The translations under genes were made by a program, and so were the position numbers. Positions 1 to 3,793 of a stretch of 64,000 bases of DNA are shown here, one piece after another. Numbering within the stretch: the first letter of the stretch is position 1; each line of letters starts with the position of its first letter. The stretch lies in the NCBI GenBank assembly GCA_016931455.1, contig JAFGES010000064.1, positions 13,664 through 77,663 on the forward strand, in the 5' to 3' direction. The notes beneath the pieces were generated by a model. That model was given only the letters and a program-made list of their open reading frames with translations. It was not told where the DNA came from and did not search any database. The DNA is from Desulfobacterales bacterium. GTDB taxonomy: Bacteria; Desulfobacterota; Desulfobacteria; Desulfobacterales; JAHDSC01.

Positions 1-3000
1 CTTGGATATCAGCATTAAGCTGCACTTCTGTGACCGCTGCCGGTACTTCCGTATTGTAAATAGCGTTATATCGGGCTAAGGTATTGTTGATGATCGTTTG
101 CAATACACCTCGCTCCACAGCGCCCAAATCATAAAAATTGGCATACGCCGGATTATTATCCATAGTATCAAACCCGGTGCTGCCGATCATTTGTGCCTTG
201 CCGAAGGAAGCCGGTGTCTGCGAACCGTTACGTAAAACAGCAGGGACTTCACCGTTGGAACCGCCCGCTTCATGTGCCTCAATTGCCAAAATAATTTGCT
301 GTACTGCATGTATAAATGCCGGCATAGCCGGTCCGGCATTACGATAATTCGTGTGAGGGTTAGTCATTGTCGGTGTGGAAAACGTGGGATCCTGCAAAAC
401 ACGTTCCGTATGCCCATCGGCATCAACAGTATCATCGGTACCACCGGAGGCGGTGCATTGAAATTGATGAATCGCTTGGATGGTTTGCGCCATAGCTGCC
501 TGGTTAACATTGGCAACGCCGCCGGCTGCGGCACGCTCTTGCAAATAATCTACTGTGGACAATATGCCTAAATCGTGCAAGCGGTCTTGCACCACGCGAA
601 CATTAGCCTCCTGATTAATGACACCGCCTCTGCCGCCAACGCTACTGGTTATGTTGATATTTTCTTGTAAGGGTAATACGGGATTATTAAGTTTGCGTAG
701 AGTAATGCTCACGGTTTCTATCTGCGCGGCAGCGTGTGCCCGCATGATAACACTACCCCAGGTATTAATGGCCGTGAGCGTTTGTGGGATATTGGCGTCA
801 GGAACAGCCGCGCCACCAGCGGCATCCACCGCTTCTGTACGAAAATGGGTTTGCTCAAGAAACCCCAGATCACGCAAACGGTCTTGCACAGGTCGAACAT
901 CTGCGGGTAAATTATCCCCGCCGGTTCCAACACTACCGGTCAAATCTATTTGGCTAGTGATGGAAAACAACGGATTATTCATACGGGCTAGTGTCGGGTG
1001 AAACGCTTCAACGCGGCCTACCGCGGGTGCAGTTGCAGAGAGAAATTCTTGTCGAAAGCGCGCAATCGCCGCTATGCTTTGGGTAAGATCCGTTTCAGAA
1101 ATGGGTTCATGACCTTCCGGGTCAACCCGTTCAGCTTCATAATGCGCCTGGGTTATAATTCCATACTCGCGCAAACGATCTTGAATCGCACGGCAGTCGC
1201 GCGGATGATTCCAACCCAGTGTACCCACACAAGCCTGCAAACATATTTCTTCGCGGCCGAAAAACAAGGGATCATTAAGGAACTGGTGAGTGACATCATT
1301 GGGCTCGATGATACCGTGTGCTGTCCAATCTTCCCCTATCGCAGCAGTGGGTAATCGCAATACATGTTCTTTAAATTCAACAATGGCTGCGATGGTATTC
1401 GTCAAAACAGCGATATTGACTTCGGCCGCAGCGCTATCGGGATCTTCTGCATCAAATTCCACCTTCTCGCTGTCATAGTGTGCCTGGCTAAGAAAGCCGA
1501 GAGCAAACAGTCGGTCCTGTACCGGACGCACATCACGCCGATGATTGTTTTGCCCGGTGCCGACACCTGCTGAGAGATTAATTTGTGCAGGTTGTTCATC
1601 TGGACTGATGATGACTAACTCGCTTTCCGTTGTTTCATTTTCACCAAACAAACGGCGCCTGTAGGTACGGATAGCCGCGATGGTTTGTGCGATGGTAGAC
1701 GTGTTTGCAATAAGATATCGCGCAGGATTAATCTTTTCATTGTTGTAACCCACATCTGAGAGAATGCGCAACAAATGAAGACGGTCTTGGAGCGCCCGAA
1801 CATCTGATGCCCTATTGGGTAGAGCATGATCTAATAACTCTCCGACGGCACCGCTTAAGTCAATTCTTAACGGATAATTTAAGCGTTCTAATGTTGGGTC
1901 AACCAAATCCACACGCCCTTCTGCCGGTGCATTGACACCTAATACAGTTTCACGGAACCGGCGAATTGCGGCAATCGTATGGGTAAGATCTGTTTCCGCA
2001 ATGGGTTCAGGATGTGGCGTTGCCGTTGGATCAGGTATAGCGGCTTGTTCGTTGTTGTAATCTGTTTGGGCCATTATTTTCAGCTCTAACAAACGCTCTT
2101 GTACCGCGCGTACATCGGCGGGACGATTCTCGCCGTCAGTACCGACACTGCCTTCAAGGGACAAGGACATCTTTCCAAACTGGTAAGGATCGTTGAGTAA
2201 CTCAATGCCGCTAAGGTCTGGGGCAAAACACTTCAAGCTGCCAAACACCACCAAGGTTTGGTAACGGCGGATTGCGATAATGGTTTGCGGAATGGTTAGG
2301 GGATCAATGGGTCCAGCTGCAGTGGTACTGACACGTTCCACGAAGTATTGCGCTTCTGTTAAAAAATGCAATTGATAAAGGCGTTCTTGCACTGCGCGTA
2401 CTTCAGGGGGTGTATTAATCGCAAGCCCCGCCAATCCCCCGGGCACATCGCCCACAGGGTTGGCAAGCCTGATATGCGACAGCGGAAACAACGGATGTGC
2501 GTTTAACATCGTTAACGCCAAACCACCAGGTTGCAGATTAGTAAGTCTGGAACCGAAGCATGCAGTGAAAAAATTATATAAAGCAGTCATTAATCTTGGC
2601 ACTGTTGCGGGGTTAACCGGGCCGGCGCCGACATTAATAGGTTCAGCAGCCATATCAGCTTGTGTTAAACGTCCAAGATATTGCAGGCGGCGTTGCACAC
2701 GACGCAAATCCACGGGATTATTGGCACCACTATGCCCCACTGTGCCGCTTAATACCACTGCTATACGCAGGATTAAGTCGCCCAGATCCTGTGGCTGTAA
2801 CATGTGTGCTTGTTGCGCGGTGATACGTATTGCCCGGCGGGTTTGCATGCTCACTAAGACCAGTTCGAATTCCTCATAAAAGGGCATGCACAATTCAAAA
2901 CGGCCTTCCGCATTGGTTGTGACATCCTCAATAGAATGCCCACCTCGCGTGAATGCACTGACGGTAGCATTAGCAATCGCCTCGCCAATACTATCCACAA

Positions 3001-3793
3001 CGCGACCCCGGTACACCAATTGATCAGCTAAATTGAATTGTTGCACTGCCATAACACTGGGCGCCGCGGGCGCACTGCCTTCTTCTTCGCCGTCAGCAGT
3101 TTCCGGTGTAAACAAGGCTAACAATACTCGCGCATTGCCATGGTCTGTCTGCCTTGCATGCGGTATAACTTCGATCATTTCCCCTTCTGCACTGCCGCTT
3201 ATTTCCAATGTATCGGGCATGACGCTCAGCCAGCGTACCGTACCAGGTGTGGGCGGTTCCACGATTGCGCGAATTCGCGTGGTTTGCTCTGCCACAACCA
3301 TGGGCAATGCCTCTTCACCTTGTTCTTCGCCTTCGCCTGCCTCTGCAGCCTGCTCTGCTTGCGCCTCTTCGGTTTCTTCTGCCACCAATTGAATCGATAT
3401 CTGATACCCCACCGCACCAACCGATAATGGTACACTTGCTTGTACCTCGTCATCGATAACGATATCCAACGCAATATCGGGCTCAGTGCCGGGTGATTCG
3501 CTATTGGCGGCTAAATTGATGAGCCGTCGACTGTCGCCGGTCAACAGGCACGATGTTTGATCCTCGTTATCCTGGAATATTACACGCGGATTTTGCCCTT
3601 CACGTAACATGCGCAAATTTAGACGTACTTGACCGTCTTGTTTATCAGGGGTCCAGTCAACGCCTAAAAACAGTTTAGCCGCTTCCTCACGCGGGAAACG
3701 ATCTGAGCACATGACAATGGTATTGGCCGTCCAACGGTCCGCCCAACACAATGTGCCTCGTTTTACTCTGCCTCTAACTTCTCGGTACGGCAA
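1..3793 (-). CDS. Giant wall-associated protein, 3' end cut by the window edge. It has an acidic N-terminal segment, a CarboxypepD_reg-like segment, 8 tandem ~100-aa PG_binding_1-like repeats, and a possible lysozyme/transglycosylase-like tail.
   Basis: Absent from the ORF track because no stop lies inside the window. The reverse frame is open from 3796 down to position 2 (at least 1237 codons). Candidate starts are TTG 3793 (GAGGA 9 nt upstream) or ATG 3712. The motif D-V-R-x-V-Q-D/E-R-L-x-x-L-G recurs 8 times, each followed by TIxAIxxF and GxVDPxxxTLxxLNxPL. The left end reads AIEAHEAGG...ASFGKAQMIG. Confidence 0.8.
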   Translation of the reverse strand, partial: MPYREVRGRVKRGTLCWADRWTANTIVMCSDRFPREEAAKLFLGVDWTPDKQDGQVRLNLRMLREGQNPRVIFQDNEDQTSCLLTGDSRRLINLAANSESPGTEPDIALDIVIDDEVQASVPLSVGAVGYQISIQLVAEETEEAQAEQAAEAGEGEEQGEEALPMVVAEQTTRIRAIVEPPTPGTVRWLSVMPDTLEISGSAEGEMIEVIPHARQTDHGNARVLLALFTPETADGEEEGSAPAAPSVMAVQQFNLADQLVYRGRVVDSIGEAIANATVSAFTRGGHSIEDVTTNAEGRFELCMPFYEEFELVLVSMQTRRAIRITAQQAHMLQPQDLGDLILRIAVVLSGTVGHSGANNPVDLRRVQRRLQYLGRLTQADMAAEPINVGAGPVNPATVPRLMTALYNFFTACFGSRLTNLQPGGLALTMLNAHPLFPLSHIRLANPVGDVPGGLAGLAINTPPEVRAVQERLYQLHFLTEAQYFVERVSTTAAGPIDPLTIPQTIIAIRRYQTLVVFGSLKCFAPDLSGIELLNDPYQFGKMSLSLEGSVGTDGENRPADVRAVQERLLELKIMAQTDYNNEQAAIPDPTATPHPEPIAETDLTHTIAAIRRFRETVLGVNAPAEGRVDLVDPTLERLNYPLRIDLSGAVGELLDHALPNRASDVRALQDRLHLLRILSDVGYNNEKINPARYLIANTSTIAQTIAAIRTYRRRLFGENETTESELVIISPDEQPAQINLSAGVGTGQNNHRRDVRPVQDRLFALGFLSQAHYDSEKVEFDAEDPDSAAAEVNIAVLTNTIAAIVEFKEHVLRLPTAAIGEDWTAHGIIEPNDVTHQFLNDPLFFGREEICLQACVGTLGWNHPRDCRAIQDRLREYGIITQAHYEAERVDPEGHEPISETDLTQSIAAIARFRQEFLSATAPAVGRVEAFHPTLARMNNPLFSITSQIDLTGSVGTGGDNLPADVRPVQDRLRDLGFLEQTHFRTEAVDAAGGAAVPDANIPQTLTAINTWGSVIMRAHAAAQIETVSITLRKLNNPVLPLQENINITSSVGGRGGVINQEANVRVVQDRLHDLGILSTVDYLQERAAAGGVANVNQAAMAQTIQAIHQFQCTASGGTDDTVDADGHTERVLQDPTFSTPTMTNPHTNYRNAGPAMPAFIHAVQQIILAIEAHEAGGSNGEVPAVLRNGSQTPASFGKAQMIGSTGFDTMDNNPAYANFYDLGAVERGVLQTIINNTLARYNAIYNTEVPAAVTEVQLNADIQ
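570..2720 (-). repeat. Eight tandem coding repeats with a period of about 300 bp (peptidoglycan-binding-like units)
   Basis: The conserved core (plus strand CGCAAACGGTCTTGCAC-like) recurs near 574, 871, 1168, 1503, 1765, 2082, 2368 and 2668. Confidence 0.8.

Follow-up and report, generated by a model that had tools for sequence, protein, structure and literature searches.

A large modular protein with eight PG_binding_1-like repeats in a contractile injection system cluster of a Desulfobacterales bacterium: a candidate wall-targeting effector

Few cargo proteins of contractile injection systems (CISs) are known, and most of the characterised ones act on eukaryotes. The hallmark of toxins associated with extracellular CISs (eCISs) is an N-terminal DUF4157 domain, followed by a linker of up to 1000 amino acids (aa) and a C-terminal toxin, and a peptidoglycan hydrolase has been validated among such toxins (Geller et al. 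2021, PMC8213781). EAT10 and pesticin are already known peptidoglycan-hydrolase representatives of the eCIS-associated toxins (EATs). A peptidoglycan-binding domain is carried by 68 predicted EATs (Danov et al.). A 1228-aa eCIS cargo was located in the tube lumen; cargo of this type starts with a loading region specific to its system and ends in a variable effector domain, and DUF4157 is present in some cases (bioRxiv 10.64898/2026.05.27.728243). The present work concerns a 64,000-nucleotide (nt) stretch of a Desulfobacterales genome (contig JAFGES010000064.1, positions 13,664 to 77,663; hereafter the window). The left edge of the window cuts a minus-strand gene (1..3793) for a 1460-aa protein, hereafter the target, which lies among the genes of a phage-tail-like CIS. 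From its domain composition and relatives we lean, without strong conviction, towards regarding the target as a large modular anti-bacterial effector that is directed at the cell wall and delivered by this CIS.

The target resembles EATs and the AlgoCIS cargo proteins Cgo1 and Cgo2 in being large, modular and CIS-encoded, with a system-specific N-terminus, a long middle part and a variable C-terminal (in the target, putative) toxin. In two of its homologues, P0022 and P0041, the same repeats and the same C-terminal domain (CTD) are preceded by a canonical eCIS_core/DUF4157 domain, whereas the Pfam scan of the target itself found no DUF4157. The target further differs from AlgoCIS and EAT cargo in that its N-terminal domain looks folded and theirs are disordered, and from EATs in that its CTD belongs to no described toxin family; unlike eCIS loci, its operon has the phage gene order (sheath, tube, chaperone-like protein, tape measure). 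The endolysin gp144 of phage phiKZ (PDB 3bkh/3bkv) is similar in having a PG_binding_1 domain followed by a lysozyme-like/transglycosylase domain, the latter being a candidate assignment in the target. However, gp144 possesses one PG_binding_1 unit and the target eight, each with an insertion of 14–25 residues, and the candidate catalytic part of the target has no detectable SLT/GH23 (PF01464) sequence similarity and contains a helical insert of about 175 residues. Contractile tails that carry a wall-degrading activity are known from phages, with the tail-associated lysins phiKZ gp181 and T4 gp5. The wall effectors of type VI secretion systems (T6SSs) and Rhs/Tc tips are also delivered by contractile machines and combine a wall-binding segment with a wall-degrading toxin (again a candidate in the target); PDB entry 4nso, named ‘Effector protein’, which we take to be VgrG3 of V. 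cholerae, has a PG_binding_1-like stretch. Unlike T6SS effectors, the target carries no VgrG, PAAR or Rhs fusion, an immunity gene was not recognised next to its gene, and the host machine is a phage-order tail cluster.

The gene is absent from the list of open reading frames (ORFs) that accompanied the window, because the listing program drops ORFs running off the source. As the initial annotation had recognised, the reverse frame is nevertheless open from 3796 to the edge: translation down to base 2 yields 1265 codons with zero stops, which has a chance of about 1.1e-27 at the local base composition, where the expected stop spacing is about 21 codons. An in-frame TAG at 3799–3797 bounds the frame upstream. 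The first start codon after it is the TTG at 3793–3791, with a GAGG at 3807–3804, 10 nt upstream (together 3791..3807, minus strand), and homologues conserve the N-terminus from this codon onward (MPYREV.GRVK.GTLCWADRW). This TTG is most likely the start of the 1460-aa gene, so that the earlier figure of at least 1237 codons, counted from an ATG, is replaced. The missing C-terminus, which was to be sought on another contig, was supplied by Logan contig SRR13394437_395656 (L001), retrieved from public assemblies by looking up the 1405-aa NHL-repeat protein encoded upstream of the target. The contig and the window are 100% identical over 18,111 shared nt. The complete gene, at L001:14319-18701, encodes 1460 aa, and the Logan gene call also starts at L001:14319; codons 1–1264 lie in the window and the C-terminal 196 aa beyond its edge. 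The protein is identical to P0001, an NCBI protein from a metagenome-assembled genome (MAG) named ‘carboxypeptidase regulatory-like domain-containing protein [Desulfobacterales bacterium]’, the record of which starts 14 codons further in.

Local hidden Markov models (HMMs) built on the alignment of homologues gave the domain order, which comprises an N-terminal domain (aa 1–260), a CarboxypepD_reg-like domain (aa 262–328), eight repeats (aa 346–1145) and a CTD of 311 aa (aa 1150–1460); all these features are on the minus strand. The N-terminal domain begins with a subdomain, aa 1–135 (3389..3793), delimited by a local HMM and the alignment. It continues with a linker, aa 136–165, and a second region, aa 166–260 (together 3014..3388), recognised from the translation, the composition and an HMM over residues 1–260. 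The linker contains 11 acidic and 0 basic residues and is the acidic segment reported earlier. The CarboxypepD_reg-like β-sandwich (2810..3010), also reported earlier, matches Pfam PF13620 with 30.5 bits in the whole protein and 32.7 bits in the N-terminal 360 aa, values around the cut-off of 32.3; it was found in all long homologues and is precomputed as present in P0001–P0003 and P0008. No signal peptide, lipobox or transmembrane helix is predicted in the 1460-aa protein, and its only hydrophobic stretch holds two Asp residues.

The repeats are 94–112 aa long and share 25–52% pairwise identity; the repeat HMM also recovers eight of them. Repeat 1 (aa 346–440) is encoded at 2474..2758 and repeat 2 (aa 441–543), which contains the best single Pfam PG_binding_1 stretch of the protein (aa 463–512), at 2165..2473. 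They are followed by repeat 3 (aa 544–643; 1865..2164), by repeat 4 (aa 644–737; 1583..1864), which is the most degenerate unit, and by repeat 5 (aa 738–849; 1247..1582), which with 112 aa is the longest one. Repeat 6 (aa 850–948; 950..1246) is 52% identical to repeat 3; repeat 7 (aa 949–1045; 659..949) and repeat 8 (aa 1046–1145; 359..658), the latter also structurally modelled, complete the array. The eight units of about 100 aa described in the initial annotation are thus present at the protein level, but the DNA period of about 300 bp is not: Tandem Repeats Finder detected no DNA-level period in the repeat region, owing to the divergence of the repeats. In comparisons with homologues of only 37–44% overall identity, the repeats mostly have their nearest relative in the unit at the corresponding position; hence the eight-unit array is old and stably kept, with no recent expansion.

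Several comparisons support the assignment of the repeats to divergent PG_binding_1 domains with an insertion, as had been proposed from their sequence pattern, and wall binding is predicted for them. PG_binding_1 (PF01471) matches the whole protein with 24.3 bits (E 3.6e-5, cut-off 23), a score summed over the repeats, with no single stretch passing; it is also the only Pfam family that recurred when single repeats were scanned one by one (6 of 50). In homologues with the same repeat, as judged by the repeat HMM, the PG_binding_1 scores are 43.2 (P0022), 35.2 (P0045), 31.5 (P0030), 31.1 (P0021) and 26.0 bits (P0041), the score of P0021 coming from one stretch that covers profile positions 4–51 of 57. 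Four PG_binding_1 structures (3bkh, 5tv7, 6tci and 7rum) were verified by a PDB search with the N-terminus of phiKZ gp144 and then aligned. An hhalign comparison of the 50-repeat profile with these four domains gave P 7.4e-4, with DVRxVQDRLxxLG placed on xEVxxLQxxLxxxGY (helix 1), TIxAI on TxNAV (helix 2) and a 14-residue insertion between them. No PDB sequence was matched when the repeats were used in an HMM search. In the AlphaFold2 (AF2) model, repeat 8 (predicted local distance difference test, pLDDT, about 95) is composed of a helix, a short helix, a long helix, a short strand and a helix; helices 21–33, 57–75 and 87–93 are accompanied by an extra short helix, 39–45, in the insertion. Homologue P0010 has two units of the same repeat type, placed after a VanY D-Ala-D-Ala carboxypeptidase domain.

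The part of the CTD encoded in the window (2..346, minus strand) comprises the first 115 of its 311 residues, including E1175 (269–271) and Q1201 (191–193), and was delimited by alignments, the AF2 model and the family search. A first CTD model, built from eight sequences, had a pLDDT of 66.8 and was poor in the motif regions, and the fold search with it was meaningless; it was replaced by a model of repeat 8 and the CTD from 48 sequences, with a pLDDT of 96.1 and a predicted template modelling score (pTM) of 0.92. The conserved residues of the CTD sit in two short segments on either side of a long helical bundle, the insert of about 175 residues. In the first segment, a nearly invariant E1175-(A/S)-G ends helix 121–134 of the model, and the hairpin strands 155–156 and 161–162 carry S-x-G-x-x-Q, of which Q1201 is invariant. 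The second segment contains H1429-N-x-G and then Y1450-V-x-x-V, the H1429 motif and Y1450 being nearly invariant.

The order of these motifs matches, by eye and with the sequence verified, that of goose lysozyme 153L (...SRES73HAG, GFGLMQ, AYNAG, DYANDV). The CTD appears to share with the goose-type lysozymes and family-1 lytic transglycosylases of GH23 (153L, 1GBS) a colinear helix-end Glu-(Ser/Ala), a G-x-x-Q hairpin, (Y/H)-N-x-G and Y-x-N-x-V. The spacing from the Gln to the HN motif is, however, about 50 residues in goose lysozyme and 228 in the target, and the second invariant Glu of the target, E1362, has no assignable counterpart. Among the matches listed in a Foldseek search against the PDB, the only ones of low root-mean-square deviation (rmsd) are four goose-type lysozymes, at 3.0–3.8 Å over 72–80 columns and with Foldseek probabilities of 0.75, 0.72, 0.41 and 0.30. 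Comparisons by hhalign with the verified goose-lysozyme alignment, run with the CTD in full, with each half and with a construct lacking the insertion, placed the last two motifs in register (P 0.017–0.03). A PDB sequence search with the distant family member P0068 gave no GH23 match. The top-ranked Foldseek rows were the ClyA-family toxins AhlB, PaxB, MakE and HblL1, with probabilities of at most 0.06 and rmsd above 25 Å; on account of these values, the likeness to ClyA-type pore-forming toxins was treated as helical-bundle noise. GH23-like cleavage of the glycan strand by the CTD, with E1175 as the acid, may be considered a weakly supported leading hypothesis, of roughly even standing, and not a result.

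The CTD family is rare, with only 63 proteins among the 1.84 billion cluster representatives that were searched exhaustively by profile. The domain is nearly always C-terminal and is preceded by 0 to 9 repeats; in every repeat-bearing homologue, the repeats end within a few residues of it. It is joined to varied delivery modules, including an Rhs/TcdB-type core, DUF4157 and the slot-specific N-terminal domain of the target. P0047 is an Rhs/Tc-type protein (TcdB_toxin_midN, midC) whose core ends with ...NPQRFDDPEGM; the CTD starts 15 residues on, and the site right after the Rhs/TcC core is the position of the encapsulated toxin tip. In P0022 (94 bits) and P0041 (101 bits), eCIS_core/DUF4157 (PF13699) is followed by 4–6 repeats and then by the CTD; the P0041 gene is preceded by four consecutive genes of large proteins, and a second eCIS_core protein is encoded downstream. 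Polyangium jinanense has DUF2169 and VgrG genes at a distance of 6 kb from the gene of a CTD homologue. P0029 and P0044 consist of the CTD with little else attached, and repeats with the CTD also occur as short proteins of 400–800 aa without a tail context. Given its occurrence as an Rhs/Tc tip, at the C-terminus of DUF4157 proteins and near VgrG, the CTD behaves as a polymorphic-toxin domain, one domain being combined with several delivery modules.

The CTD stands in mid-chain in two distant proteins, P0068 (1007 aa) and P0066 (1150 aa). For P0066, in which residues 861–906 are of note, there is a weak match to Peptidase_C39_2; the C-terminus of P0068 shows by eye a Cys...His pattern recalling papain-like wall amidases, a likeness backed by no family match. 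In both Polyangium loci, the homologue is preceded by a protein of about 1970 aa of no assigned family and followed by an 850-aa protein (L007:10874-13426 and L008:10880-13432) that is 97% identical between the two and has a weak match to calcineurin-like phosphoesterases. At L002:1-10004, the short-type homologue P0005, which has no N-terminal domain, is preceded by a DUF6603 protein of 3352 aa and by three proteins with no assigned family (578, 357 and 1308 aa), a setting that may be a different delivery context. The neighbours at L002 are unrelated to those at the Polyangium loci L007 and L008, and neither set is related to genes of the window.

The N-terminal subdomain, aa 1–135, was found only in proteins of the same operon slot, among them P0009 (L003:8714-14383, 1889 aa), which likewise follows the tape measure and the NHL protein. 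The similarity of P0009 to the target is confined to the N-terminal ~250 aa, and the region aa 166–260 is conserved in it and in the homologues that bear the N-terminal domain. The remaining ~1600 aa of P0009 are unrelated to the target and have no Pfam match; P0009 may be a second, unrelated cargo type. The N-terminal domain itself has no match in Pfam or PHROG, and none of the neighbours tested, including the NHL protein, carries a copy. A word index of 5.8 billion proteins, queried with the N-terminal 260 aa or their alignment, returned nothing or one 189-aa fragment; as this index missed even P0001 and known homologues, absence from it is uninformative for the N-terminal domain. A genome scan was precluded by the variability of the N-terminal alignment.

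The cluster is, on its gene content, a phage-tail-like contractile injection system with a sheath, tape measure, hub, spike, PAAR, gp25-like and Baseplate_J proteins together. In minus-strand order, it encodes a 376-aa protein, the sheath, a 164-aa ORF, a 161-aa chaperone-like protein, proteins of 387 and 200 aa, the tape measure, the NHL protein and the target. The initial annotation saw the target as the last gene of the operon, an artefact of the window edge. Downstream of it, as read on L001 beyond this edge, are genes for a hub (367 aa), a Phage_base_V spike, a PAAR protein, a gp25-like protein, Baseplate_J and a Reg_prop-containing protein; the hub was assigned by PHROGs, and Phage_base_V, PAAR_motif, GPW_gp25/Sheath_initiator and Baseplate_J were also matched. 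No small ORF lies between the target and its neighbours. Housekeeping genes flank the upstream end of the cluster, and genes for a head or for packaging are absent upstream of it within the window, so the cluster looks like a tail-like injection system and not a prophage.

The sheath gene (14348-15430, minus strand, as are all genes of the cluster) matches Pfam Phage_sheath_1 and Phage_sheath_1C. The 164-aa ORF (13840-14334) occupies the tube position and has a weak PHROG tail match. The tape-measure-like protein (1141 aa; 8111..11536) matches PHROG phrog_1272 with E 1.6e-15, and the 1405-aa upstream neighbour of the target (3894..8111) was identified by Pfam as an NHL-repeat, β-propeller protein. 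The NHL protein is kept between the tape measure and the target slot in L003 (1684 aa), in L004 and in the Gemmatimonas locus L006 (1448 aa), and the same gene order was found in two further metagenome contigs and a Gemmatimonas MAG. For the predicted presence of the target in the particle, as a part or as a load, such conserved synteny is indirect evidence only. The 161-aa ORF, which overlaps the 387-aa ORF by 20 nt (window 12211-13840), has a weak Phage_TAC_7 match. No family match was obtained for the 387-aa and 200-aa ORFs before the tape measure, and the first gene of the cluster, that of the 376-aa protein just upstream of the sheath (15483-16613), has no Pfam or PHROG match. The G+C content is 44–50% over the cluster (1–16 kb), 36–43% in much of the remaining window and 51–54% at 34–38 kb; together with the presence of the same cluster in a Gemmatimonas MAG, this contrast suggests horizontal transfer.

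Three roles had been considered in the initial annotation, and that of a delivered wall-targeting effector fits the comparative data best; an anchor to the sacculus and a release lysin fit poorly. In such an effector, the N-terminal ~260 residues would be a system-specific module that links the protein with its CIS lineage. A long array, formed by the CarboxypepD_reg sandwich together with eight PG_binding_1-type units, would hold the protein on the peptidoglycan of the target cell, and the C-terminal 311 residues would be the toxic module. This module might cleave the glycan strand by means of a goose-lysozyme/GH23-like core with Glu1175 as the catalytic acid and a helical insert of about 175 residues, a step that is weakly supported. 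As no signal peptide is predicted, the protein would stay away from the wall in the producer; its action would begin only once the CIS has fired into another bacterium or been released onto it. The different C-terminus of P0009 in the same slot is what one would sooner expect of cargo that can be exchanged than of a structural component under conservation. A more specific form of the proposal is offered tentatively and is doubtful as a whole. In it, giant cargo would be encoded within the structural operon and marked by the folded aa 1–135 module, which would attach or load exchangeable C-termini. The CTD would found a muramidase-like toxin family distributed across CIS, DUF4157, Rhs/Tc and possibly T6SS contexts, with a GH23-type site split by the 175-residue insert, and the eight-unit array would be a fixed-length tether on the target sacculus.

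A number of observations weigh against a delivered, wall-cleaving effector. The gene lies amid structural genes and not at the 3′ end usual for eCIS toxins (PMC8213781), and no immunity gene is evident beside it. The N-terminal domain looks folded, unlike the disordered eCIS loading sequences, and could thus serve for structural attachment and not as a loading signal. The DUF2169/VgrG neighbourhood of Polyangium jinanense is not kept in the second Polyangium genome. Regarding the fold assignments, the Foldseek E-values of the goose-type lysozymes are 2.3–5.6 and not significant, a Foldseek search of the viral library gave nothing for the CTD model, and no PG_binding_1 structure is among the 50 Foldseek matches listed for the model of repeat 8 and the CTD. 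The CTD has no Pfam match at E up to 10 and no PDB sequence match with the single sequence or with the 8-sequence, 48-sequence and insertion-deleted profiles, and hhalign finds nothing for motifs I–II. The lysozyme/transglycosylase-like C-terminus, a faint resemblance in the initial annotation, is still weakly supported: the motifs are colinear and goose-type lysozymes are the low-rmsd matches, but the Foldseek E-values are above 2 and the Pfam, PDB and hhalign tests are negative or marginal.

The main rival explanation, unlikely but the one to be taken most seriously, is that the target is a structural tail-tip part resembling virion-associated lysins, which would be fixed N-terminally to the hub or spike and would digest the peptidoglycan of the target cell locally for tube passage. 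Local wall digestion of this kind is performed by the T4 gp5 lysozyme and tail lysins of the phiKZ gp181 type. The location of the gene within the structural block, directly upstream of the hub and spike genes, agrees with such a role, as do the apparently folded N-terminal domain conserved only in this slot, the lack of an adjacent immunity gene and the positional conservation of the repeats, which is reminiscent of a rigid multi-domain rod. It is less compatible with the occurrence of repeats and CTD without a tail context, fused to DUF4157 or as short 400–800-aa proteins, with the CTD alone as an Rhs/Tc tip and with the wholly different C-terminus of the slot-mate P0009.

It is rather improbable that the target is a delivered toxin with a non-wall activity, for instance one with a membrane-active helical CTD, in which the PG_binding_1-fold units would serve as a spacer only. 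In favour of this reading, the GH23 sequence-profile tests were all negative or marginal, long helices packed as a bundle make up over half of the modelled CTD and ClyA-family toxins occupy the top Foldseek rows, though at the low probabilities and high rmsd given above. Long linkers are also documented in DUF4157 toxins (PMC8213781). However, the invariant residues cluster in the two segments with GH23-like motifs and not in the helical insert, and goose-type lysozymes are the only low-rmsd matches among those listed. In P0010 the repeat is combined with a VanY peptidase, and the sole hydrophobic stretch of the target contains two Asp residues.

A release lysin, opening the producer wall in the manner of an endolysin so that particles escape, is very unlikely. 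PG_binding_1 followed by a putative glycan-cleaving domain is indeed an endolysin layout, as in phiKZ gp144 (PDB 3bkh, ‘lytic transglycosylase’), but the target has 1460 aa and a slot-specific N-terminal domain that it shares with an otherwise unrelated protein. Its gene is placed between the tape measure and hub genes with no small ORF beside it, and the CTD is also employed at the tip of an Rhs/Tc protein and at the C-terminal end of DUF4157 proteins. Anchoring of the machine to the producer's own sacculus, for which eight wall-binding-type modules could give strong avidity and which has a parallel in the peptidoglycan-binding domains that anchor the T6SS membrane complex, is hardly credible, the protein being predicted cytoplasmic in the producer, with no signal peptide, lipobox or transmembrane helix, and an anchor needing no toxin-type CTD of the kind found in Rhs/Tc and DUF4157 proteins.

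A peptidoglycan-directed CIS effector is of an already known kind. New are the array of eight PG_binding_1 domains with insertions, the CTD family, which is unclassified and spread over several delivery contexts, and the slot-specific N-terminal domain. The public annotation of P0001, named solely after its small CarboxypepD_reg segment, is corrected accordingly. The target family offers a testable example of anti-bacterial, wall-directed cargo, with a separable putative attachment domain, an array of 0–9 units and a compact modelled candidate toxin domain. Should the CTD prove to be a GH23 enzyme with a split site, it would extend the lysozyme superfamily and provide a new scaffold for enzybiotics; an N-terminal domain that proved to be a tag for loading or attachment could be put to use in the engineering of such injectors.

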